From positions 1 through 45,086 of the forward strand of contig DASRON010000025.1 of the NCBI GenBank assembly GCA_035646815.1: 45,086 nucleotides of DNA, read 5' to 3'. The translations under genes and the position numbers were made by a program. The DNA comes from Patescibacteria group bacterium (GTDB lineage Bacteria; Patescibacteriota; Microgenomatia; Levybacterales; UBA12049). Below are positions 11,000 through 45,086 of the stretch, piece by piece (position 1 is the stretch's first letter; every line of letters begins with the position of its first letter). The notes beneath the pieces are model-generated. The model saw only the letters and a program-made list of their open reading frames with translations, made no database searches and had not been told where the DNA came from.

Positions 11000-11164
11000 A
11001 TGGATAATAATTTCAACAATGATGGAGCAAATACTAATACAGTTCCTCAGCCATCTGATCCGGTACAAGGAGCACCTACGGGAGCACCTGAGCCTACACC
11101 AACACCTGGTGAAGTAGCTCAAGGACCTGTGGCAACAGATGATTCTGCCAATGGAAATGCTTAA
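11000..11164 (+). CDS. small acidic Pro/Ala/Thr-rich protein (54 aa, not in the ORF track)
   Basis: ATG 11000 lies 9 nt after AAGGAGGTGA (10981-10990). It translates to MDNNFNNDGANTNTVPQPSDPVQGAPTGAPEPTPTPGEVAQGPVATDDSANGNA. Confidence 0.3.
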   Translation: MDNNFNNDGANTNTVPQPSDPVQGAPTGAPEPTPTPGEVAQGPVATDDSANGNA

Positions 11165-20743: not shown

Positions 20744-20819
20744 TAAAATAGACTAGGGAAGTGACGGCACTACAAAAGGATACCTCAGAAAATAATTAAA
20801 TATAATAAATTGTAAAATT

Positions 20820-20831
20820 TAGCCTCAAATT
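20820..20831. repeat. left copy of a 12-bp long-range inverted repeat (TAGCCTCAAATT)
   Basis: Exact reverse complement of 21591-21602 (AATTTGAGGCTA). Confidence 0.7.
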
Positions 20832-20929
20832 AATAAGTTTTAAACAAGCAAAGCCTAAAAAAAACAAAGGATAAGAGAAGAGGGAAGAGAAGAGGGGAAA
20901 GAAAAAAACATAAGGAGCACCGAAATAGG

Positions 20930-20948
20930 TGATATAGTTTGATATAGT
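20930..20948. repeat. direct repeat TGATATAGT x2 with 10-bp phasing
   Basis: Copies at 20930-20938 and 20940-20948. Confidence 0.6.
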
Positions 20949-21171
20949 AATAGAAATGATTATTATAGGACATTATTACTAATATTTTTATTGTGGATAA
21001 CTTGTTTTCACGACATTCTATGAAGTATTTTCACAGATAAGAACAAGCAATGCTTCTTCCTATCGGGAATAGCGACGTATATTACTTAGCTTGGGAACAT
21101 ATCTCTGTCGAAAAAAATACGAATGCTCTTTTCCGGGGATAGTAGCAATAAAAACAGAATACTTTTGAGGC

Positions 21172-21213
21172 TAAAAACACTAGTTTAGATTGTTAAATCA
21201 ATCTAAACTAGTG
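21172..21213 (-). terminator. Rho-independent terminator (minus strand)
   Basis: Perfect 14-bp stem CACTAGTTTAGATT (21178-21191) / AATCTAAACTAGTG (21200-21213) with an 8-nt loop. On the minus strand it is followed by TTTTT (21177-21173). There is no T-run on the plus side. Confidence 0.6.
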
Positions 21214-21405
21214 CATTGTAAAGATCTAGGAGAAGAAGGTATACATGCACGTCTAAAGATGTAAAAACTTATTCTAGATCAAATAGAAGAGGACAAAGCT
21301 TCTTTACTTAGTTTATATATTTTAGTTGTTATTATCCTCCAAGAGGAACTAAGTAAAAAATCATACATTTTAGCAATGGGAAGCTTTAAGTGGTTATGTC
21401 GCACA

Positions 21406-21426
21406 ATAATACTTTTACGACGTCAG
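21406..21426. repeat. left copy of the ~20-bp inverted repeat paired with 24794-24813
   Basis: The reverse complement CTGACGTCGTAAAAGTATTAT matches CTGACGTCGCAAAATATTAT at 19 positions, with 1 mismatch and a 1-nt indel. Confidence 0.65.
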
Positions 21427-21590
21427 TCAGGCTCGGTTCCGGGAGAAGTGGTTGTTTTGTATGTGTCTAAAAATTAAAATATTAATACTTTTTTACTGTA
21501 TACATTCTCTCTTTTGTTAATTTCCCTTTGTTTTATCCTCCTGTATTTTTATATTACCTCCCCTACTATGGGTTTGATTAATTTTGTAAA

Positions 21591-21612
21591 AATTTGAGGC
21601 TATCTGAGGCTA
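21591..21612. repeat. right copy of the 12-bp inverted repeat plus tandem TGAGGCTA x2 (10-bp phasing)
   Basis: AATTTGAGGCTA (21591-21602); TGAGGCTA at 21595-21602 and 21605-21612. A further TTGAGGCTA lies at 21165-21173. Confidence 0.65.
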
Positions 21613-21616
21613 ATAT

Positions 21617-22348
21617 TTATATAATTATTGGTCTTCTCCGAGGCTGGAGCGAAGGCTTGTCTCTTATTGTTCCTTTAGATACTATAGATGCTTGAAGTGT
21701 TTCCGTGAATTCAGTTTTAGTTACTGGAATTGTTACCATAACTCCTCCTTTGTTGGTAAATTCTTCTTGAGATTTGCTTGATCGATTAAGTGAGTCTTTT
21801 GGAGTGATTACAACATAGCCTAGTGCTGAGTCATGATAATGCTGAATTAAAGGTTTGGAAATATTACTTATTCTTGTAGTTTTGAGAGCTTCTACAAATG
21901 AATGTCCTAATTTTACCTCCCAAATTACAGGGAGACCACAAACTAGAGTGAGAGCATCATATTCTATATGCGCAGCACCAGTTCTTTTATTATGCGCAAT
22001 GTAATTGTGACCATATTGTCTAAAAACATAATCTTCTGTTTCAGTGCCGCTTGGGATAGGATTAACTATTAGATCGGGATGTTCTAAGGAGAGCATTTTT
22101 AATGTTAATGAAACATGCGTTTCAGCAAGCTGTCCTAGCGTGTCACCATTTTTACTTCCATTTGTTTTGTTTTCCTTCATTCTTGTAAGTTGTTTTCCAC
22201 TAAGTGTTTTTAAAAGTGCATTCCAGTTAGGAGTTGTACTACTGAGTCCTTTGATGATGGTAGCTAATCGTGGATTTGTAGTAAGTACAACTTCAGGAGA
22301 TCCTTTTTCAATTTTTCTATGTCGTCCAGGTGCGTGTGATTCATGCAT
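21617..22348 (-). CDS. hypothetical protein with PD-(D/E)xK nuclease-like motif
   Basis: 243 aa with no TM or signal peptide. E76 (GQLAETHV), D131 (IEYDALTLV) and E144-V-K146 (VIWEVKLG) have the order and spacing of restriction-endonuclease-like folds. Confidence 0.45.
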   Translation of the reverse strand: MHESHAPGRHRKIEKGSPEVVLTTNPRLATIIKGLSSTTPNWNALLKTLSGKQLTRMKENKTNGSKNGDTLGQLAETHVSLTLKMLSLEHPDLIVNPIPSGTETEDYVFRQYGHNYIAHNKRTGAAHIEYDALTLVCGLPVIWEVKLGHSFVEALKTTRISNISKPLIQHYHDSALGYVVITPKDSLNRSSKSQEEFTNKGGVMVTIPVTKTEFTETLQASIVSKGTIRDKPSLQPRRRPIII

Positions 22349-22393
22349 AAATTCTTAAAGAAATTTGGGGCAGAAAATATTTACTTATGTTAA

Positions 22394-22423
22394 GTTATAA
22401 CATTAAAACTTTATAAGCGTCAA
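22394..22423 (-). promoter_or_regulatory. own promoter of the nuclease-like gene
   Basis: On the minus strand: TTGACG (22423-22418), 18-nt spacer, TGtTATAAC (-10 at 22399-22394). Confidence 0.5.
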
Positions 22424-22443
22424 TAAGAAACTATAGATTGAAA

Positions 22444-23133
22444 TTACCCGCTAGGTTTTTTACCCGCTTCATTTTTGCAATCATTTGCTTTAATATCGCA
22501 TTTATTCTGACAGGTTGGATCGTCTCTAAAGATTATTGGGCATTCACTTATTCCAGGATCTGTATACTCTATACATTTTTTACTTGGTGTACAAGCAAAA
22601 AGGCTATATTGTGGGCAGCTGTCGTTTATTGGCATATTAGTACTTGAAATGCCAAAGTTATAGTTACAACTTTTTCCGCATCCTTTTCTACAGCCAATAA
22701 AATCTATGTTCTTGTCATTAGTGTTTTGTAAATCAACTAATACCTTATACCAGCTTGGACATTCTACGATTCCATTTTTTTCCTTATTTCTACTGTCATG
22801 AGGATCTTTACTGATTAATTCATATCCATAGGGTTTATTGCCATCAAGGCAAGGAAATTTTTGAATATACGTAACATTGCCTTTTTTAAGTGGCATTCCG
22901 CATTCAGGAAATTCCTTGGGGTAGCATTTCATGTCATCATAATACTGATCAAAGGCATTTCTTATTTCAATTAGATTGCTTTTAATTTTTGCGTCATTTG
23001 CTTTTGTTATTTGAGAACTTATTCCAATATATCCTGCAGTGCTAAGAATTGCTAAAATAGAGATAGAGATAAGCATCTCTATAAGAAGTGAACCCCTCCT
23101 TAATCCTTTAACAAGCTTTTTATTCCTTGCCAT
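22444..23133 (-). CDS. orphan type IV pilin-like protein with Cys-rich C-terminal extension
   Basis: Prepilin-like leader MARNKKLVKGLRRG|SLLIEMLISISILAIL with Glu at +5. ANDAKIKSNLIEIRNAFDQYYDD and CNYNFGISS parallel the pilin-like gene at 44272. It has 14 Cys. Confidence 0.65.
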   Translation of the reverse strand: MARNKKLVKGLRRGSLLIEMLISISILAILSTAGYIGISSQITKANDAKIKSNLIEIRNAFDQYYDDMKCYPKEFPECGMPLKKGNVTYIQKFPCLDGNKPYGYELISKDPHDSRNKEKNGIVECPSWYKVLVDLQNTNDKNIDFIGCRKGCGKSCNYNFGISSTNMPINDSCPQYSLFACTPSKKCIEYTDPGISECPIIFRDDPTCQNKCDIKANDCKNEAGKKPSG

Positions 23134-23178
23134 ATACCTATTATGCTCTCATATCTTTAAGAGTAAGGTCAAATCTTA

Positions 23179-23207
23179 TTGACATAGCATAAATTTTAGT
23201 TTAAATT
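23179..23207 (+). promoter_or_regulatory. promoter of the CAP-domain gene
   Basis: TTGACA (23179-23184), 17-nt spacer, TAAATT (23202-23207). ATG 23214 is 6 nt downstream. Confidence 0.5.
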
Positions 23208-23213
23208 TGTGCT

Positions 23214-23888
23214 ATGGCTAGCATAATTGTTTTATTTTTGCTTTTGTTTTTTCCTAGCTTAGAAACTCAAGTAAATAAATTGTTTACTGAGGTTAAAATT
23301 CCAGAAAATAAAGTAGTAGTATATAATCTTAGTCCAACTCCACTGCCAACTCCAATAAAGCCAACGATAGTAGTTAAGAAAAATATAAAAAAGATAAATG
23401 ATGTAAATAAGGATCCTGCTGTAAGTAATAAAAAAGATCAAGAAGATTCTTGGGGTGTGTCAAAGCAAATATCAGAGCACACTTGGACTATGAAGGTTGG
23501 AAATGATCAGGAAATGGCGGGATCTCAAGAAATAATGAATGCGTTAAACAATTACAGAAACGTACATGGTAAGGGTATACTTTCCTGGAATGATGGTCTT
23601 GCAAGTTTTGCTAAAAGTAGAGCTGAACAATTTAATAAAGATGGAAAGCTAGATGAACATGCAGGTTTTAACAGTTATTTTGGAGATCCTGAAAATATTC
23701 GCAAAACAGGATTTATGAAAGTAGGAGAAAATTCCTCTGTTGGATATAAGATGGATGGAGTTCATATAATTGAATGGGTATTTGCAGGAGATGCTCCTCA
23801 TGATAATAATCAACTTGATTTATCTTGGAGTGCTGTTGGCATAGGAGTAAGTGGAGCAGCTGTAGATATTATATTTGGTGGTAATTAA
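23214..23888 (+). CDS. secreted/anchored CAP (SCP/PR-1, YkwD-like) domain protein
   Basis: N-terminal hydrophobic segment, Pro-rich linker, then NALNNYRNVHGKGILSWNDGLASFAKSRAEQ...GENSS...IEWVFAGDAPHDNN, typical of CAP domains. Confidence 0.65.
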   Translation: MASIIVLFLLLFFPSLETQVNKLFTEVKIPENKVVVYNLSPTPLPTPIKPTIVVKKNIKKINDVNKDPAVSNKKDQEDSWGVSKQISEHTWTMKVGNDQEMAGSQEIMNALNNYRNVHGKGILSWNDGLASFAKSRAEQFNKDGKLDEHAGFNSYFGDPENIRKTGFMKVGENSSVGYKMDGVHIIEWVFAGDAPHDNNQLDLSWSAVGIGVSGAAVDIIFGGN

Positions 23889-23922
23889 TATAGGGTTGTA
23901 ATCTGTTCTGTGAAAAGAATTA

Positions 23923-24717
23923 CTATGGGGTAACTAAATTTATTGGTACAGAATTATCTCCGTTAGGGTCTGATAATAATCCTTCAGTTTTAATATGGTT
24001 TTCTGTAAATTTACTTCTGCTTAAAAAGACATTTTGTTCTGTTCCATCTTTCATAACTGCAATTAGTCTGAACCAAGATCCTCCTGGGAAATTTTTGGAA
24101 ACTGGATCAAATCCGTCTACTAATTTGAAAGTTCCTGATATTTGAAATGAATTCATGTTATGGATATATGTTTCAGGAGATTTACTATCTGGTTTTAAAG
24201 CCATGATATTGTCCCAATCTACTTCGGTAGATTCTCTTTTAGACTTTTCTGGAATATCAGGTTTAAATCTTACAGCCAGCTTAACTCCATTCTCAGTCTT
24301 GATAGTTATTCCTAATGTTCCGTTAAAGATTTTATTTGCCCTGACATTCTCTGCTTGAGTAGCGACTACTTGCTCTACTGTGGTTGTAGTCTTATCTGGA
24401 GCATATTTTCCAAGATTATACTCAGCATCAATTGCTTGCCCAATTTCATGAACTCCTAGTGTTGCAGCAGCTGCGACAGCAATAGTTCCTATTGCTGTCT
24501 TCTTTAAAGCTTTTGGATGCTGTAAAGTTTTTTCAATTATTCTATGAGAAAGAGGTCTTCTGCTAACTGTAGAGTTTGTACCTTTGGTATCTCTTTCTCT
24601 TCTTCGTTTTTGCCATCTTGCATGTCTTTCAATTCCATCTTTATCAATTTCTTTTTTTGATTCAATACTACGTACTGATGCAGATGGTCCTTCGGGAGGA
24701 ATATTTGATTCAGGCAT
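23923..24717 (-). CDS. type II membrane protein of unknown function
   Basis: Strongly basic N-terminal ~85 aa, one TM (TAIGTIAVAAAATLGV), then a ~170-aa external domain. ATG 24717 is preferred over the track's TTG 24735. Confidence 0.5.
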   Translation of the reverse strand: MPESNIPPEGPSASVRSIESKKEIDKDGIERHARWQKRRRERDTKGTNSTVSRRPLSHRIIEKTLQHPKALKKTAIGTIAVAAAATLGVHEIGQAIDAEYNLGKYAPDKTTTTVEQVVATQAENVRANKIFNGTLGITIKTENGVKLAVRFKPDIPEKSKRESTEVDWDNIMALKPDSKSPETYIHNMNSFQISGTFKLVDGFDPVSKNFPGGSWFRLIAVMKDGTEQNVFLSRSKFTENHIKTEGLLSDPNGDNSVPINLVTP

Positions 24718-24726
24718 AATAATTAT

Positions 24727-24756
24727 AGTATGCAATGTTTAGCCTTATTTTGTCAA
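24727..24756 (-). promoter_or_regulatory. promoter of the 24717 gene
   Basis: On the minus strand: TTGACA (24756-24751), 18-nt spacer, CATACT (24732-24727). Confidence 0.4.
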
Positions 24757-24760
24757 GAGT

Positions 24761-24789
24761 TTGACAACTCTGACTAATTTGTCTACTAT
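24761..24789 (+). promoter_or_regulatory. consensus promoter of the tyrosine recombinase gene
   Basis: TTGACA (24761-24766), 17-nt spacer, TACTAT (24784-24789). The track's TTG start at 24761 is actually the -35 box. Confidence 0.55.
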
Positions 24790-24793
24790 TATT

Positions 24794-24813
24794 CTGACGT
24801 CGCAAAATATTAT
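24794..24813. repeat. right copy of the ~20-bp inverted repeat; candidate recombinase core site
   Basis: CTGACGTCGCAAAATATTAT lies between the promoter and the ATG (24812) of the recombinase gene. Arms TACTATTATTC and GCAAAATATTA are 8/11 complementary around TGACGTC. Confidence 0.55.
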
Positions 24814-25753
24814 GAAAGGAACACTGCCCGAATTAATTAATCAATTCCTAGAGTATCTTGAAATTGAAAAGAATTGTTCTAAATTAACAATTCGTGATTA
24901 TAGGCATTATCTTGAAGTGTTTGATAAATGGCTTACCACTACCCTACCGGATAAGAATATTAAAGATTTAGATTTACAAATTGTTAGAAAATACCGCGTT
25001 TTTTTGGCAAATAGAGAAAATGATAAGGGAATGACTCTAAAAAGAGTTACACAAAATTACTATGTTATTGCCTTAAGATCATTTCTTAGGTTTTTAATTA
25101 AAAATGATTATGATACTCTGGAGCCTTCAAAGATTGATCTTCCCAAAACAGAAAGCAGATCTTTAAAGTTTTTAGAAAGAGAACAGGTTGATCGTTTGGT
25201 AACCGCAACAGATACTTCAAAAGAAGAAGGATTAAGAGACAGAGCAATGCTAGAATTACTTTTTTCTACTGGTCTTCGTGTTTCAGAGTTGGTTAGTTTA
25301 AATAAGGATAGGATAAATTTAGAAAGAAAAGAATTTGGAATAATTGGAAAAGGAGGAAAATCAAGAATAGTTTTTGTTTCAGAAAGAGCAGCAGAATGGA
25401 TAAAAAGATATCTTAATAAAAGAGAAGATATTTTTAAACCTTTATTTATTAGGTATTCAGGAAAGGTAATTGAAGACAATGGTGGTGAGAAAATGAGGCT
25501 TACAGCAAGAAGCGTTGAGAGAATGGTTAAGAAATATGTAAGAGCAGCAAGGATTCCTGTTGATGCAACGGTTCATACCTTAAGACATTCATTTGCAACA
25601 GATTTACTTACAAACGGAGCTGATATAAGGTCTGTTCAGGATATGCTGGGACATAAAAATATTGCAACAACTCAGATCTATACCCATGTAACAAATAAAC
25701 AATTAAGAGAAGTTCATAAGAATTTTCATAGTGGAAATAAAAGTAAGAATTAA
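24812..25753 (+). CDS. XerC/XerD-family tyrosine recombinase
   Basis: N-terminal SAM-like domain (LINQFLEYLEIEKNCSKLTIRDY). Catalytic motifs LFSTGLRVSEL, HTLRHSFATDLL and GHKNIATTQIYTHV. Confidence 0.85.
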   Translation: MKGTLPELINQFLEYLEIEKNCSKLTIRDYRHYLEVFDKWLTTTLPDKNIKDLDLQIVRKYRVFLANRENDKGMTLKRVTQNYYVIALRSFLRFLIKNDYDTLEPSKIDLPKTESRSLKFLEREQVDRLVTATDTSKEEGLRDRAMLELLFSTGLRVSELVSLNKDRINLERKEFGIIGKGGKSRIVFVSERAAEWIKRYLNKREDIFKPLFIRYSGKVIEDNGGEKMRLTARSVERMVKKYVRAARIPVDATVHTLRHSFATDLLTNGADIRSVQDMLGHKNIATTQIYTHVTNKQLREVHKNFHSGNKSKN

Positions 25754-38802: not shown

Positions 38803-38832
38803 TTGACATTTTAGCTTGTTTACACGTACTAT
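38803..38832 (+). promoter_or_regulatory. promoter of the type IV pilus operon
   Basis: TTGACA (38803-38808), 18-nt spacer, TACTAT (38827-38832). ATG 38840 is 7 nt downstream. Confidence 0.55.
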
Positions 38833-38839
38833 TATAGTA

Positions 38840-40567
38840 ATGCCCAATGATACCAAACAACAGTCAAAAGAGGACCAATCAGTTGCTGATATTCTTTTAG
38901 GTCAGCATTTAATTACTCCGGAGCAAAATCAAGAAATTAAGGTTAAAAGTGCAAGTCAAGGCATAAATGATGTAGCTGCGATTGAGCAAATGAATATCGT
39001 AGGAGAGGAAAAGCTTGCAGAAGCAAAAGCGCTTCGAATGGGTATTCCTTTTATTTCACTTGAAAATACTTCTTTTTCTCCACAAGCATTAGGTTTTATC
39101 CCAAGAGCAGTAGTTGAGAGATTTCAATTAATTCCTTTTGGATATGATGAAAAAAGCAAGGTTATTTCCGTTGCCATGAGTAATCCTGTTGATCTTGAAG
39201 CGATTTCATTTGTTCAGCAAAAAACTGGACTTAATGTTAAAACTTTTGCAGCATCTGCAGCTGATGTTAAAAGAGCAATCCAGCTTCAATATAGGCAGGA
39301 AATTGTTGGTCAGGTTGGCGAAGCGTTAAAAGAAACAGAAGAGTTTAATAAAGCACGTACTATAGATAGTAGTGATATTGGAAAAATTATAAAAGAAGCT
39401 CCAATTGCAAAAATTGTTTCAACTATTCTTGAGTACGCAGTAACAAGTAGAGCTTCAGATGTTCATATTGAACCCCAGGAAGACAGAGTTAGAGTAAGGT
39501 ATAGAATTGATGGAATTCTTTATGACCGTCTTAGTCTTCCCAAGTCAGTTCAGGAAGCAGTTATTTCAAGAATTAAGATTTTATCTGAAATGAAAATAGA
39601 TGAACATAGGTCTCCTCAGGATGGAAGATTTAATTTTAAAGTTGAAAATAAAGAAGTTGATCTTCGTATCTCAGTGCTTCCTACAGTTTTTGGAGAAAAA
39701 ATAGTAATGAGACTTTTAAGAAAATCAGGAGGCCTCCCTACTTTAAATGAGTTAGGGCTTACTGGAAATTCATTAAGAAACTTAGAAGCATCTATTTTAA
39801 GACCGCACGGAATAATTACTGTTTGTGGTCCGACAGGATCAGGAAAAACAACAACTTTGTATTCAATTTTGGCAAAATTAAATACAACAAGAGTTAATAT
39901 AATGACTTTAGAAGATCCAGTTGAGTATCAAATTCCCGGTATTAATCAGGTTCAAATTAATCCTGCTGTAGGCCTTACATTTGCAACAGGACTTAGATCA
40001 TTTCTAAGGCAAGACCCAAACATTATATTAGTAGGAGAAATTAGAGATGAAGAGACAACAGATCTTGCAATTCAAGCAGCTTTAACAGGACATTTAGTTT
40101 TTTCAACACTTCATACATCAAGTGCTTCTGGTGCGCTACCCCGTTTAACTGACTTAGGAGCAGAAACATTTTTGCTTGCTTCAACAATGACAGCAATACT
40201 TGCTCAAAGAATTGTTAGAAAAATATGTGAGCATTGTAAGGTTTCATATAATCCCCAACCCCAGATATTAGAAGAGATTAAAAATGCATTAGGAAATCTT
40301 TTTCAAGAAAGTAAACAAGCACTTCTTTACAAGGGAAAGGGATGTACTGAATGTGGAGGAACAGGCTATATGGGAAGAGTTGGTATTTTTGAAACTTTGC
40401 CTATTTCTGAAAAAATATCATCTTTGATACTGCAAAACGCTGATAGTAATACAATTGAAAAAGAGGCTATTTTAGAAGGTATGATTACCATGAAAAGAGA
40501 CGGTTATTTAAAAGCATTAGAAGGGTTAACGACAATAGAGGAAGTTATTAGAGTTGCCCAGGACTAA
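38840..40567 (+). CDS. pilB: type IV pilus assembly ATPase PilB (GspE family)
   Basis: N-terminal GSPII_E_N-like domain, Walker A GPTGSGKTTT, and a tetracysteine motif CEHC...CTECGGTGY. Confidence 0.9.
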   Translation: MPNDTKQQSKEDQSVADILLGQHLITPEQNQEIKVKSASQGINDVAAIEQMNIVGEEKLAEAKALRMGIPFISLENTSFSPQALGFIPRAVVERFQLIPFGYDEKSKVISVAMSNPVDLEAISFVQQKTGLNVKTFAASAADVKRAIQLQYRQEIVGQVGEALKETEEFNKARTIDSSDIGKIIKEAPIAKIVSTILEYAVTSRASDVHIEPQEDRVRVRYRIDGILYDRLSLPKSVQEAVISRIKILSEMKIDEHRSPQDGRFNFKVENKEVDLRISVLPTVFGEKIVMRLLRKSGGLPTLNELGLTGNSLRNLEASILRPHGIITVCGPTGSGKTTTLYSILAKLNTTRVNIMTLEDPVEYQIPGINQVQINPAVGLTFATGLRSFLRQDPNIILVGEIRDEETTDLAIQAALTGHLVFSTLHTSSASGALPRLTDLGAETFLLASTMTAILAQRIVRKICEHCKVSYNPQPQILEEIKNALGNLFQESKQALLYKGKGCTECGGTGYMGRVGIFETLPISEKISSLILQNADSNTIEKEAILEGMITMKRDGYLKALEGLTTIEEVIRVAQD

Positions 40568-40570
40568 ATT

Positions 40571-41638
40571 ATGAATATACAAGAACTATTAGAAGTAACA
40601 ATTAAAAACAAAGCTTCGGATTTGCACTTACTAGTTGGTCTCCCACCTGCTATTAGAATTGATGGAACTCTAAACTATTTAAATAGCTACGGACAAATTT
40701 CTCCACAAGATATTGAAACAATGATTTCGTCTATTTTAAAGCCTGAACAAAAAGAATTATTAGATGCTAACAAAGAAATTGATTTTTCCTTGGGATTTGG
40801 CGGAGGTGCTTATGGTGATCTTGGAAGATTTAGAATAAATGCATATTATCAAAGAGGATATTTAAGTGCTGCTTTTAGATTTTTAGAACCTAAAATAAAA
40901 ACAATTGAAGAACTTAAACTTCCTAAGATTTGTCATACCTTTGCTGACTTAAGACAAGGGTTTGTTTTGGTTACTGGTCCAACCGGTCATGGAAAATCAA
41001 CAACGATTGCAGCAATTATAAATGAAATAAACATTAAAAGAGCAGCTCACATATTAACCATAGAAGACCCAATAGAATATGTTTATCCTATTGAAAAAAG
41101 TATTGTTTCCCAAAGAGAAATAGATATTGATACTCATTCTTGGGCAAACGCCTTAAGATCTGCTCTGAGAGAAGATCCAGATGTTGTTTTAGTAGGAGAA
41201 ATGAGAGATCCTGAAACAGTTTCTGCAGCTATTACAATTGCTGAAACTGGGCATTTGGTTTTTTCAACACTTCACACAAATTCTGCATCACAAACAATTG
41301 ATAGAATAATTGATGTATTTCCAGCAAATCAACAAGCTCAGATTAAAACACAATTAGCTTCTTCTTTAAAAGGAATTATTTCTCAGCGTTTACTTCCGCA
41401 AATAAGCGGAGGAAGAGTGCCCGCAGTAGAAGTGCTTGTAGGAAATTCTGCTGTTGCAAGTAATATTCGTGAAGGAAAAACACATTTAATTGATTCTGTT
41501 ATTCAAACATCTCAAGAGTCTGGAATGATTACGCTTGAATCATCACTTGCATCTCTTGTTTTATCAGGAACAATTAGCTTAGATATAGCAAAAGGTTACT
41601 CCTTAAGACCAAATGAATTAATGCGATTACTCGGATAA
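40571..41638 (+). CDS. pilT: twitching-motility retraction ATPase PilT
   Basis: ASDLHLLVGLPPAIRIDG, GPTGHGKST and AHLVFSTLHTN-type motifs. 355 aa. Confidence 0.9.
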   Translation: MNIQELLEVTIKNKASDLHLLVGLPPAIRIDGTLNYLNSYGQISPQDIETMISSILKPEQKELLDANKEIDFSLGFGGGAYGDLGRFRINAYYQRGYLSAAFRFLEPKIKTIEELKLPKICHTFADLRQGFVLVTGPTGHGKSTTIAAIINEINIKRAAHILTIEDPIEYVYPIEKSIVSQREIDIDTHSWANALRSALREDPDVVLVGEMRDPETVSAAITIAETGHLVFSTLHTNSASQTIDRIIDVFPANQQAQIKTQLASSLKGIISQRLLPQISGGRVPAVEVLVGNSAVASNIREGKTHLIDSVIQTSQESGMITLESSLASLVLSGTISLDIAKGYSLRPNELMRLLG

Positions 41639-41642
41639 ATAA

Positions 41643-42848
41643 ATGAGACTTAGATATAAAGCAGCAACAAAAGAAGGAAAAATAATTCAAGGTTTAATTG
41701 ACGCAAAAGATGTAAATGAAGCAGCTGGTTACCTTCGTAATAAGGAATTTATGGTTATAAGAATAGATGCAGTAACTTCTGATTCTTTTCAAGCTCTTCT
41801 TGCAAAATTAAATAAAGTAAAATCAGCAGATGTAGTTTTATTTACAAGACAATTATCCTCAATGCTTGAATCAGGGCTTACATTAATGCGCGCACTTGAA
41901 ATATTTAGAGATCAAGTTCAAAGCAAAGCAATGATTGAAGTTGTTAGTAGTCTTATAACCGATGTTGAAGGAGGAAGACCTTTATCTTCTGCTCTTGCCA
42001 AATTTCCAGATGTTTTTTCCCCAATTTACATATCTTTAGTAAGAGCAGGAGAATCTTCAGGTCTTTTGGATAAAGTTCTTTTACGACTTGCTGATAATTT
42101 AGAAAAACAGCAAAAACTTAAAAGCACAATTAAGGCAGCACTTATGTACCCTATGGTAGTTGTTACCTTGATGATCGTTGTTGTTTTTGTTATGATGATT
42201 TTTGTAATTCCACAACTTTCTGTTTTGTATAAAAACTTAAATATTCCCCTTCCTTTACCGACTCAGATAATTGTTGGAATGTCTAATTTTGTAATTATAT
42301 TTTGGCCAATTATCATTATTGCCTCTGTTTTTTTGTTTGTGTTTTTAAAAAGATGGAAAAAAACAGAGCAAGGACAGCTTATTTTAGATAACATAGTTTT
42401 AAAAACGCCTGTATTTGGCCTTTTAATAAAACAAACGATCCTAACAGAGTTTTCAAGAACATTTGGACTCTTAGTTGGAACAGGAACATTAGTTGTTGAT
42501 GCACTTTTAGAGACAGGAGATACAATGGGAAATATATATTATAAGAATGCCGTTAAAGATGTTTCAAAACAAGTTGAAAAAGGAATTTCTGTTGGGGATG
42601 CTATGCAGGCAAATCCTTTGTTTCCTGCTATGATTGTCCAGCTTGTAAAAGTCGGAGAGCAAACCGGAAAAGTTGATGATAACCTTCTAAAAGCATCTGA
42701 ATATTATGAACGTGAAGTAAATCAAACTGTAAAAACCCTAACAACAGCAATGGAGCCTTTTATTATGGTTATTTTAGGTGTAGGCGTAGGGTTTTTAATT
42801 ATTTCTGTAATTACTCCAATTTATAGTTTAATTTCAACAATTCAATAG
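41643..42848 (+). CDS. pilC: type IV pilus platform protein PilC (GspF family)
   Basis: Two T2SSF repeats and three TM segments. 401 aa. Confidence 0.9.
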   Translation: MRLRYKAATKEGKIIQGLIDAKDVNEAAGYLRNKEFMVIRIDAVTSDSFQALLAKLNKVKSADVVLFTRQLSSMLESGLTLMRALEIFRDQVQSKAMIEVVSSLITDVEGGRPLSSALAKFPDVFSPIYISLVRAGESSGLLDKVLLRLADNLEKQQKLKSTIKAALMYPMVVVTLMIVVVFVMMIFVIPQLSVLYKNLNIPLPLPTQIIVGMSNFVIIFWPIIIIASVFLFVFLKRWKKTEQGQLILDNIVLKTPVFGLLIKQTILTEFSRTFGLLVGTGTLVVDALLETGDTMGNIYYKNAVKDVSKQVEKGISVGDAMQANPLFPAMIVQLVKVGEQTGKVDDNLLKASEYYEREVNQTVKTLTTAMEPFIMVILGVGVGFLIISVITPIYSLISTIQ

Positions 42849-42883
42849 AGATGGTAAAGTTACGATAGCTTTAGATTAGGGGC

Positions 42884-42913
42884 TTGACAAGATATTTTGA
42901 ATATGGTTATTAT
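42884..42913 (+). promoter_or_regulatory. internal strong promoter in front of the major pilin gene
   Basis: TTGACA (42884-42889), 18-nt spacer, TATTAT (42908-42913). ATG 42924 is 10 nt downstream. Confidence 0.5.
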
Positions 42914-42923
42914 AAATACATAC

Positions 42924-43505
42924 ATGAAAAAACTCACTGCCCTATTTAAAAACAACAGAGGTTTTACATTAATAGAACTTTTAGTCGTTATAGGAATCCT
43001 CGGAATTTTAGCAGCAGCACTTATCGCAACAATTGATCCATTTGAACAGCTTAAAAAAGCAGATGATGCAAAAATTAAAAATATTTCTGTAGAATTTCAA
43101 ACAGCAAATGTAAGATATTACACAAGTCATGGTGCATTTCCATGGAATGATACAGATGTGTCAAATTCAAATGTTAATTGTCAGGGGGTAGCGGGATCAG
43201 CATTTCCTCTACAATTAGGTTCAGGAGCATTATTAACTGACTGTATAGGAACTTCACTTATTTCTAATAGTTTAATTGGAGATGGAGAACTTAAAGGGTC
43301 TTTTTCAAGCAACACAGTTGATCTAGACAAGATATGGTTAAATTGGAGCAGTAGTGATGCAACCAATCTGATTGTTTGTTTCAGTCCAACCTCTAAGTCT
43401 CAAAAAGCAGCTTCTGATACAAAATACGATAACAAAGGAACAGCAATTACTGGTTGTCCTTCTGCATTAGCATTAGATGGAGTTTGCTTTTGGTGCACAA
43501 GATAG
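42924..43505 (+). CDS. type IV pilin (probable major pilin)
   Basis: MKKLTALFKNNRG|FTLIELLVVIGILGILAA is a class III signal. The track's TTG 42897 lies between the -35 and -10 boxes. Confidence 0.85.
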   Translation: MKKLTALFKNNRGFTLIELLVVIGILGILAAALIATIDPFEQLKKADDAKIKNISVEFQTANVRYYTSHGAFPWNDTDVSNSNVNCQGVAGSAFPLQLGSGALLTDCIGTSLISNSLIGDGELKGSFSSNTVDLDKIWLNWSSSDATNLIVCFSPTSKSQKAASDTKYDNKGTAITGCPSALALDGVCFWCTR

Positions 43506-43516
43506 TTAGTTAATAA

Positions 43517-44305
43517 ATGCCTCTTTTTTATTCAATAATAATTTTCTCAATAGGATTATGTATTGGTTCATTTATAAATGTTGTAATAGATAGACTTCCT
43601 AAAAAAGAATCAGTAATTTCTGGAAGATCATATTGCGATAATTGTCGTAAAAAGCTTAGTTGGTACGAGCTTATTCCCATCATCTCGTTTTTTATCTTAA
43701 AAAGAAAGTGTAAGGTTTGCAAAACATCTCTTAGCTTTCAATATCCAGCGATAGAGATTATTACAGGAATTTTAGTTTTGTTTTCTTTTCTGTTCTTAAT
43801 TTCAGATAAAAGTTTAAATCTATTTACTTATATTTTACTTTTTTATTACATTTCGATTATTTCTTCTTTTATTGCTATTTTTGTAATAGATATTAAGTAC
43901 GGAATAATTCCAGACAAAATAATAGTTTTTCTGCTTTTTGTAGTACTCCCCTATTCTTTTATTTTTCAAAAACCATTCATTTTTGATTCCTTTATTTCGG
44001 CAATTTCTGCTTTTATATTCTTTCTAATATTAGTATTAGTTACTAAGGGCAAAGGTATGGGTTTTGGAGATGCTAAACTTGCCTTTGTAATGGGTATTAT
44101 TCTCTCTTTTCCTGCGATAGTTGTATCTTTGTATGTGGCTTTCTTGACAGGTGCTTTTGTTTCAATCATACTCGTTATATGGGGCAAAAAACACTTCAAA
44201 AAGAGCACAATTCCTTTTGCACCGTTTTTAGCATTTGGAACAATACTCTCTCTTTTTTTAGGAAGTCAAATTTGGCAGTTCGCAAAACAAATTCTTCAAT
44301 TCTAG
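43517..44305 (+). CDS. pilD: prepilin peptidase / N-methyltransferase PilD (A24 family)
   Basis: CDNC...CKVC zinc motif and the GFGDAKL active-site Asp motif. Polytopic. Confidence 0.9.
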   Translation: MPLFYSIIIFSIGLCIGSFINVVIDRLPKKESVISGRSYCDNCRKKLSWYELIPIISFFILKRKCKVCKTSLSFQYPAIEIITGILVLFSFLFLISDKSLNLFTYILLFYYISIISSFIAIFVIDIKYGIIPDKIIVFLLFVVLPYSFIFQKPFIFDSFISAISAFIFFLILVLVTKGKGMGFGDAKLAFVMGIILSFPAIVVSLYVAFLTGAFVSIILVIWGKKHFKKSTIPFAPFLAFGTILSLFLGSQIWQFAKQILQF

Positions 44306-44784
44306 GCTTTACTTTAATTGAGCTTATTACCTCAGTTGCAGTACTTGCAATTATTGCAACTATTAGCGTTGTTGCCCTAGATCCTTTTACGCAATTTCAA
44401 AAAGCAGGTGATGCAAGAATCAAATCAGATCTTTCACAGATTGAAAAATCATTTGAGCTGTATTATGAAGACAATGGCAAATATCCGGATGCAACTGCCT
44501 CCTATAAAATTAACTCATTAGGTGGAGAGATTGATTGGGGTACTGCTTGGCAGCCATATATGAATATCCTTCCTAAAGACCCAAGGTCTAATCGAAATTA
44601 TGTTTATTACTCCCCTTCTGATGGACAGTCATATTATATATATGCTAATCTAAATAGAGAGGAGGATACGGCTCTTTGCAATTCAGATGGATCTGCTTGT
44701 AGTTCTTTAAGTCAGAATGGCGTAACTGAAGATTGCGGAGCAGTGTGTAATTTTGGAGTTTCTAGTCAAAATGTAAGCCCATGA
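44272..44784 (+). CDS. pilin-like protein (minor pilin/pseudopilin)
   Basis: The GFTLIELITSVAVLAII signal has no in-frame ATG upstream. TTG 44272 lies 6 nt after AGGAAG (44260-44265) and gives the leader MAVRKTNSSILG|F. It overlaps the pilD 3' end by 34 nt. Confidence 0.65.
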   Translation: MAVRKTNSSILGFTLIELITSVAVLAIIATISVVALDPFTQFQKAGDARIKSDLSQIEKSFELYYEDNGKYPDATASYKINSLGGEIDWGTAWQPYMNILPKDPRSNRNYVYYSPSDGQSYYIYANLNREEDTALCNSDGSACSSLSQNGVTEDCGAVCNFGVSSQNVSP

Positions 44785-45086
44785 AAAAAGGATTTACTTT
44801 AATTGAACTTTTGATAGTAGTAGCTATAATAGGAGTCTTAGCAACGCTTCTTATGTCAAATTTTGTGGGAGTAAGACAAAGAGGAAGAGATGCAGAAAGA
44901 AAGTCAGATTTAAGACAAATGCAATCTGCTTTAGAAATGTATAGAGCAGATAACGGTTTATATCCTCTTACAGCAGCATTTCCTGCTTGTGGGACTTCTT
45001 TTACATACGATGATGGAGGAAATGTAACTACCTATATGCAAAAAGTTCCTTGTGATCCTGTAAATAGTGGTTCTCTTGTTCTTACT
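44781..45086 (+). CDS. GspG-like pilin/pseudopilin, 5' part (runs off the window)
   Basis: ATGA-coupled start. MKKG|FTLIELLIVVAIIGVLATLL...RDAERKSDLRQMQSALEMYRADNGLYP. Not in the ORF track because no stop falls in the window. Confidence 0.8.
   Translation, partial: MKKGFTLIELLIVVAIIGVLATLLMSNFVGVRQRGRDAERKSDLRQMQSALEMYRADNGLYPLTAAFPACGTSFTYDDGGNVTTYMQKVPCDPVNSGSLVLT

Follow-up and report, generated by a model that had tools for sequence, protein, structure and literature searches.

We analysed a 45,086-nt stretch of a Candidatus Levybacteria chromosome (Candidate Phyla Radiation (CPR), Microgenomates), hereafter the window, centred on a gene for a Xer-family tyrosine recombinase (xer, 24812–25753, + strand) and on two short elements upstream of it. 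The first, site A (21396–21423, + strand), is a two-armed 28-bp palindrome and a candidate dif-type core site of the adjoining recombinase. The second, site B (24797–24808, + strand), is a half-site at the xer promoter and a proposed Xer-binding operator. Synteny is conserved in relatives to the left (PsiU, LytR, TPR, YebC and DUF5656 genes) and to the right (SIMPL and CarB genes), but the content of the interval between site A and xer is not.

The encoded Xer protein, 313 amino acids long, matches PF00589 (2e-45) and PF02899, the SAM-like N-domain, and its catalytic R, K, HxxR, H and Y residues are all readable (LRVSE, GKGGKSR, HTLRHSFAT and LGHKNIATTQIYTHV). Among the NCBIfam models, XerD (262 bits) and XerC (254 bits) score below their equivalog cutoffs, XerA_Arch just exceeds its own (222.8 bits, cutoff 220) and XerS stays well short (138.6 bits, cutoff 267). 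The best match in the PDB is E. coli XerD (1a0p, 1.5e-40), followed by the XerA structures 4a8e and 5hxy. Residues 5–306 also match chain 14 of entry 9i5v (401 residues, E = 4e-28), where the label ‘Ribosome-associated translation inhibitor RaiA’ is probably a naming issue in the entry. For comparison we used 80 genome loci, one genome per species, with Xer identities of 75–93%; almost all are labelled Candidatus Levybacteria/Levyibacteriota or Patescibacteria. Across species (loci L012–L091), identities are 75–93% for Xer, 46–77% for YebC, 36–85% for DUF5656, 35–73% for SIMPL and 60–80% for CarB. Xer is the most conserved gene of the neighbourhood, under a constraint that is unusually strong for a recombinase.

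A first-pass annotation of this DNA had pointed to two inverted repeat copies of about 20 bp, at 21406–21426 and 24794–24813, as the ends of an invertible cassette next to the recombinase gene or, alternatively, as a dif-like site with a pseudo-site. We reproduced the repeat in sequence and position: the reverse complement of 21406–21426 is CTGACGTCGTAAAAGTATTAT, 24794–24813 reads CTGACGTCGCAAAATATTAT, and the two differ by one mismatch and one 1-nt indel. The window holds two copies of GACGTC and no more, one in each repeat copy (21419 and 24796), as that annotation had supposed from reading alone; shuffled sequences held 1.1 copies on average and at least two in 34 of 100 cases. The ungapped core of the repeat is 14 nt (24.6 bits) and ranks 12th among the inverted pairs of the window lying no more than 5 kb apart under a first-order model; simulated Markov-1 windows held 5.35 ± 2.06 pairs at least as good. 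By statistics alone the pair is unremarkable and proves nothing. We took it to be real because GTCGYANAAT is rare in the window and conserved at both places in relatives. Exact copies of this motif are found in the 45 kb only at 21398–21407 (+ strand), where it directly abuts the left repeat copy, and at 24799–24808, against 0.29 expected. The proposed link between the repeat and the tyrosine recombinase was borne out.

The left repeat copy proved to be part of site A, which reads ATGTCGCACAA-TAATAC-TTTTACGACGT, an imperfect palindrome with two 11-bp arms around a 6-bp spacer and a symmetry that reaches 21394–21425. Taken on the minus strand, 21406–21426 spells out the right arm and the spacer of site A. 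The earlier description of it as a core plus one arm is incorrect, the left arm of the complete site (21396–21406) having been missed. The pair looks like an inverted repeat because the right arm of site A resembles the half-site B; the palindromic nature of site A makes site B just as much a direct repeat of the left arm.

Site A is the sole match to its position weight matrix (PWM) in the window. It lies upstream of xer in 57 of the 80 genome loci, always as one copy in + orientation and 0.75–5.2 kb away. With two PWM variants included, it was present in 53 of the 57 loci whose upstream sequence reaches 3 kb or more, and the scan returned no second two-armed site in any genome locus. In a logo of 58 sites, the positions from T(−4) to Y(+25) are near-invariant, including the asymmetric 6-bp spacer, which is as invariant as the arms. 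The consensus arms, AYGTCGYACAA and RYGTCGYAAAA, agree at 9–10 of 11 positions, and at 8 of 11 in the window copy. One variant, in L080, has the outer arms altered symmetrically, from GTCG..CGAC to TTCG..CGAA.

The exact 24-nt core of site A was present in at least 119 metagenome contigs, one copy each, with no contig appearing twice among the matches listed; six of the core-bearing contigs among these matches are 0.5–1.19 Mb long and still single-copy. The core is thus nearly invariant in about 175 Levybacteria/Microgenomates loci (57 from genomes and at least 119 from metagenomes), in all of which the polarity of the site relative to xer is constant, at an overall distance of 0.25–5.8 kb. 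The exact core is kept even where Xer identity falls to 45–60%; there xer often starts 255–1,200 nt beyond the site, and the gene order of the metagenome contigs (TPR on the minus strand, YebC, DUF5656, site A, xer) still holds. Viral contigs contained no exact match to site A, and we rejected carriage by a phage or by an IMEX, a mobile element that uses Xer to integrate, on this ground. An 11-6-11 layout is the geometry of dif sites (PMC5357621). Known dif sites span about 28–31 bp, with two inverted arms of roughly 11 bp around a spacer of 6–11 bp; site A has this build, is single-copy in the window, in each genome locus and in each of the at least 119 contigs, and is conserved among related species.

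The DNA on both sides of site A is conserved as well. The spacer that holds it is 870 nt long, free of open reading frames (ORFs) and made up of several conserved blocks. About 20–30 nt past the site lies a purine-rich box, GGGAGAAGTGG (21441–21451, + strand), which in alignments is semi-conserved, distant relatives included, and is visible in most compact relatives; it is a possible accessory sequence. About 160 nt past the site follows the block CTCCCCTACTATGGG (21558–21572, + strand), with at least 90% conserved columns in 57 loci, kept also in the minimal loci L035, L061 and L031. After this block, TTTGAGGCTA (GAGGCTA) repeats occur at 21593–21613, and variable genes start only beyond them. 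Variable DNA begins some 230–260 nt to the right of site A, past the conserved blocks, and the left flank is conserved too. With conserved sequence to its left and right in 57 species, the site never forms a rearrangement junction.

Site B, ACGTCGCAAAAT, matches the arm consensus of site A at 11 of 11 positions and forms the core of the right repeat copy. It covers about +1 to +12 of the predicted xer transcript and ends 3 nt before the ATG. Upstream of it is a sigma-70-like promoter (24761–24789, + strand; TTGACA, 17 nt, TACTAT) with the same layout in L012 and L013. The position between promoter and start codon given earlier for the right copy is correct, the ATG at 24812 being the start chosen by the gene callers too, while the recombinase core layout seen there around TGACGTC is not conserved in relatives.

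A half-site lies within 300 nt upstream of the xer start in 68 of the 80 genome loci, at a modal distance of 6–7 nt from the ATG, and in 25 of these 68 a TTGACA stands 16–19 nt upstream of it. In an independently chosen metagenome set it was found in 51 of 70 loci, with 55 copies pointing toward xer and 1 in the opposite orientation. Half-site density is 39 per 10 kb at xer promoters and 0.48 in the remainder of these loci, an approximately 80-fold difference. Placement varies by lineage: the half-site coincides with the −10 element in many Levybacteria, lies in the leader just past the −10 in the window, L012 and L013, and stands immediately upstream of the −35 in distant relatives. Lineages thus differ in where the half-site falls with respect to the −35 and −10, and it is conserved for itself and not as a −10 hexamer; given this variable placement and its rarity elsewhere, we rejected both a simple −10 box and an element common to promoters in general. 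Some relatives carry 2–3 half-sites upstream of xer. One clade (L031, L046–L048, L056, L058, L064, L067, L070, L072 and L083) has a long xer leader, which starts, about 120–240 nt upstream of xer, with a promoter whose −10 is itself a half-site (TTGAC[TA]-17/18-GTCGTATAAT). Two outward-facing half-sites follow in this clade, ATTTTACGAC-N6-8-GTCGCAAAAT, whose outer flanks co-vary (tcca...tgga, tca...tga), an arrangement pointing to a hairpin or to another type of binding site.

From these patterns in the DNA, we consider it probable that site A is a gene-adjacent dif-type site of the Xer encoded beside it, and that half-site B binds the same protein and possibly autoregulates xer. Xer would bind both arms of site A and exchange strands across the 6-bp spacer between sister copies. 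It would probably act alone, because the arms are near-symmetric, and the most likely role of the exchange would be to resolve chromosome dimers. A Xer monomer on site B would hinder RNA polymerase and lower xer transcription, so that synthesis of the recombinase would limit itself. We infer Xer binding to both sites, recombination at site A, dimer resolution and autoregulation at site B: the recombination step rests on the geometry of site A, its uniqueness, its conservation and its linkage to xer, and the autoregulatory step on the enrichment, polarity and promoter position of the half-site. For xerS/difSL, where dif is adjacent to the gene, autoregulation through a site in or near the xer promoter has been suggested (PMC1914069). 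The first-pass annotation had named a dif-like site next to its recombinase gene as its alternative, and the kind of element was right; the roles appear reversed, with the complete site at the left copy and the partial one at the right copy beside the gene.

Several observations weigh against this reading. An exact half-site near xer is absent in 12 of the 80 genome loci and 19 of the 70 metagenome loci, and the arm change at site A in L080, the one informative variant, has no counterpart at site B. We also saw no shift in GC skew that coincides with site A. Raw GC skew and convergent gene orientation hinted at a replication terminus near 21–26 kb, but we did not accept them as support, since skew at third codon positions (GC3 skew) does not switch at the site. 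Measured by coding strand, GC3 skew is 0.31 for PsiU, 0.19 for YebC, 0.15 for DUF5656 and 0.09 for xer, all on the plus strand, and −0.19 for TPR, −0.21 for SIMPL and −0.19 for CarB, minus-strand genes on either side. Projected onto the plus strand, it ranges in the pooled loci from +0.08 to +0.2 in all 2-kb bins between −10 and +10 kb, whichever way the genes point, with no sign change at site A. Positive values are still seen at +13 kb in L140, L141 and L197, and in the window they persist to about 31 kb, past which the skew is close to zero. In the 10 kb to the left of the window we found only plus-strand housekeeping genes, without dnaA. A dif site usually lies close to the skew shift point, 5% of genome length being counted as ‘near’, although termination need not happen at dif itself (PMC3025954). 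The missing shift weakens the dif reading and does not refute it.

A further step would make the position of site A part of the system: Microgenomates may resolve chromosome dimers by a single self-regulating Xer with a dif-type site untied to the terminus, drawing selectivity from flanking boxes, as psi and cer do on plasmids, and not from positioning by FtsK/KOPS. The flanking boxes in question are the purine-rich box and the conserved blocks downstream of it. This extension is tentative, and we regard it as unlikely.

Among other explanations for the two sites, the one that survives best, at a low probability, is that they are operators of another DNA-binding protein, for example an SOS-type repressor, and that the link to xer is regulatory only. 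Palindromes with conserved half-sites are typical operators, and site B does sit in a promoter. Yet site A occurs once per contig of about 1 Mb, and there is no regulon because the site is single-copy on that scale. Its 6-bp spacer and its arm asymmetry are conserved like the arms, as expected of a strand-exchange region and unusual in an operator, and site B is a lone half-site of strict polarity, which suits a recombinase that binds as a monomer and not a dimeric repressor. The linkage of site A to xer also persists over deep divergence.

Pairing at the RNA level is improbable. Here site A would belong to a non-coding RNA gene or to its promoter, and a transcript containing UUUUACGACGUCAG would pair as antisense with CUGACGUCGCAAAA in the xer leader and control translation. 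The 870-nt ORF-free spacer with its several conserved blocks, the terminator-like hairpin on the minus strand at 21178–21213, the −10-like hexamer within the half-site and the place of site B in the predicted 5′ leader of the window, abutting the ATG, would all fit. However, in most relatives site B lies at or upstream of the −10 and hence outside the mRNA, and no −35 element stands upstream of site A. Searches of the spacer against Rfam gave no match at gathering or E-value thresholds, RNAalifold returned no consensus structure (−4.9 kcal/mol), and 57 sequences folded singly downstream of site A had a mean z-score of +0.17, no better than shuffled ones. With all three analyses negative, we rejected a structured RNA around site A.

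The remaining explanations turn on the DNA between site A and xer, which holds four genes in the window. Gene 1 (21617–22348, minus strand, 243 amino acids) has homologues only in L013, L022 and L117; it had been called nuclease-like, and searches of Pfam, NCBIfam and PHROG returned no match. Gene 2 (22444–23133, minus strand) encodes a Cys-rich protein with a prepilin-type N-terminal motif and has homologues only in L012, L037 and L200; the earlier description as pilin-like is upheld by TIGR02532 (17.7 bits, cutoff 16.3), with PF07963 below its cutoff (17.2 bits). Gene 3 (23214–23888, + strand; homologues in L012, L013 and L117) is a CAP-domain protein, as previously assigned (PF00188, 23.3 bits, cutoff 21.1). 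Gene 4 (23923–24735, minus strand), divergent from xer and 264–270 amino acids long, had no family match in profile searches. These four genes recur only in the closest relatives, and orientation is kept in the six relatives that share island genes. The 204 interval ORFs of 128 loci formed 95 clusters, and 62 clusters had a single member. Most frequent were trehalase, transaldolase, GH18, a MurI-like racemase and OmpR-type regulators; we found no mobile-element genes among the interval clusters. Interval content differs between lineages, and the accessory nature first proposed for the genes was confirmed; variable DNA is present on the other side of xer too. Judged by this distribution, the interval genes are probably the lineage-specific fill of a stretch prone to rearrangement, and neither a recombination cassette nor an inverted segment.

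Capture or excision of DNA between sites A and B in direct orientation, in the manner of an integron or an IMEX, would account for this hypervariable content. Site B repeats the left arm of site A in direct orientation, their spacers agree at 4 of 6 positions, and the 2–3 half-sites upstream of xer in some relatives recall attI, which carries multiple integrase-binding sites. Against it, the variable DNA does not adjoin the core but starts about 230–260 nt rightward of site A, a second two-armed site is absent from every locus, and the presence of variable DNA on the far side of xer, the lack of mobile-element genes in the interval and the lack of an exact site A in viral contigs also count against it. 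TIGR02249, the integron-integrase model, gives 118 bits (cutoff 265), and a motif search after the interval genes, allowing up to 1 mismatch, gave chance-level matches and no attC-like elements. An integron was rejected because there is neither an IntI-type integrase match above cutoff nor an attC-like repeat, and an IMEX because both flanks of site A are conserved and a second dif-like site is lacking. We hold capture or excision to be quite unlikely.

Chance resemblance of two unrelated sequences is less likely still. Some 5 inverted pairs as informative as this one would be expected in a window, and 12 were observed, but the comparative data contradict coincidence: the 10-nt motif is kept at both locations in well over 100 species and is rare elsewhere.

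The most improbable explanation, to which we give almost no weight, is the phase-variable cassette first proposed for this DNA, in which Xer would recombine inverted copies at 21.4 and 24.8 kb, flip the 3.4-kb segment and swap promoters. A recombinase gene does adjoin short inverted repeats, the bracketed genes code for surface or secreted-type proteins, and Xer-like invertases exist in mycoplasmas, Ureaplasma being mentioned in the literature in this connection. However, seven assemblies from different samples, 99.8–100% identical to the window, are all collinear with it, and at the assembly level the inverted form appeared in none of these seven nor in any relative. Comparison of orthologous loci, the test suggested for it, returned one orientation only: site A and the shared island genes have the same polarity in every relative, the polarity of the site is fixed in the 57 genome and at least 119 metagenome loci, and both flanks of site A stay contiguous and conserved in 57 species. 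An inverton has two complete inverted sites with matching crossover regions, whereas site B is single-armed and the spacers in inverted register (GTATTA and TATTAT) agree at 1 of 6 positions. In many relatives, moreover, the interval holds housekeeping genes such as the MurI-like racemase and transaldolase.

We compared the proposed arrangement, a dif-type site A with a Xer-binding half-site at the promoter, with known Xer systems. Its closest kin are gene-linked modules with a single recombinase (XerS/difSL) and, in geometry, the classical 28-bp dif. It is set apart from them by the sequence of the site, the separate promoter half-site, the conserved flanking boxes and the absence of a nearby skew shift. 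As in XerS/difSL of streptococci and lactococci, the site forms a module with its own recombinase gene, the link is conserved across the clade and the near-symmetric arms suggest a single recombinase. In contrast, difSL, whose 31 bp include an 11-bp spacer, directly precedes xerS and sits at a skew-defined terminus, whereas site A is 28 bp (11-6-11), lies 0.25–5.8 kb from its gene, is accompanied by an extra promoter half-site and shows no skew shift within −10/+13 kb, and the recombinase falls far below the XerS cutoff.

With XerCD/dif of E. coli and B. subtilis, site A shares the 11-6-11 layout, partial dyad symmetry, one copy per chromosome and phylum-wide conservation, and the window recombinase is closest to XerD in the PDB. 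Unlike XerCD/dif, the system here probably has one recombinase, which misses the XerC and XerD equivalog cutoffs, and a site linked to its gene; the sequence of site A is unrelated save for ..CGCA.AA in one arm, and skew within −10/+13 kb lends no support to a terminus position. Archaeal XerA/dif likewise has a single recombinase, and the window Xer passes the XerA_Arch cutoff and matches the XerA structures. In Sulfolobus, dif lies outside the termination zones, which would fit the missing skew shift here. The host, however, is a CPR bacterium, and neither gene–site linkage nor a promoter half-site is described for XerA. The Xer-like invertases of the Mycoplasma vsp, vpma and vlp loci resemble the window in having a Xer-family gene beside short repeats and surface-protein genes. 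Those loci occur in both orientations, with a recombination site before each switched gene, whereas here there is one orientation and interval content is unrelated between species.

The ORF-free spacer around site A has further features. The hairpin at 21178–21213 pairs 15 bp without mismatch around a 6-nt loop (CACTAGTTTAGATTG TTAAAT CAATCTAAACTAGTG) and is followed by TTTTT on the minus strand. Many Levybacteria keep its sequence (blastn up to 100% over 23 nt) and not just the pairing, which makes it more than an ordinary terminator. Between DUF5656 and site A, at 20922–21035, lies a non-coding block that is conserved, is specific to Levybacteria proper and contains tandem TGATATAGT repeats, ATTATAGGAC and two TTTTCAC motifs; the spacer is shorter in distant relatives. 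Within this block is the sole perfect DnaA box of the window (20992–21000, TTATCCACA, minus strand). We rejected a replication origin at this conserved box, as GC3 skew does not switch. The motif TTTGAGGCTAA has four copies in the spacer, at 20817–20828 (− strand) and at 21165–21176, 21593–21603 and 21603–21613 (+ strand), and is conserved in relatives beside the hairpin and past site A. Small ORFs after a GGAG box were rejected, as they are not conserved in the sequences of relatives. Same-strain contigs from five independent assemblies break near site A, ending at 21360 (three contigs), 21358 and 21344, with one start at 21189, inside the hairpin. This recurrent break about 50 nt to the left of site A may reflect strain heterogeneity or the hairpin.

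Elsewhere in the window, a 99.9% identical contig (ERZ27294418 k141_254576; L002 1134–1146) has an extra copy, about 85–95 nt long, of the region at about 11052–11136, just after dnaB. This is a strain-level duplication; Tandem Repeats Finder reported no array in the window itself. A type IV pilus cluster at 38816–45000 comprises a PilB-like T2SSE protein, a second T2SSE ATPase, T2SSF, a pilin, an A24 prepilin peptidase and a T2SSG-like pseudopilin. Like the window, same-strain contigs from other assemblies stop near 45.0 kb.

The literature we searched contained no description of a dif site or Xer module of CPR bacteria. The comparison across relatives removes a false lead, in that there is no evidence for a phase-variable surface-protein cassette at this locus. 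If the dif-type reading of site A is true, the locus would supply a concrete candidate for the dif site and Xer module of a large group of CPR bacteria that are uncultured and have small genomes. With its single copy, the 24-nt core makes a sharp genomic landmark that could serve for assembly checks and for anchoring synteny, and site A could be used to ask whether dimer resolution depends on terminus position and FtsK. The half-site at the xer promoter, in turn, would offer a testable case of a recombinase regulating itself through a copy of its own recombination arm, a form of control so far merely speculated for XerS.

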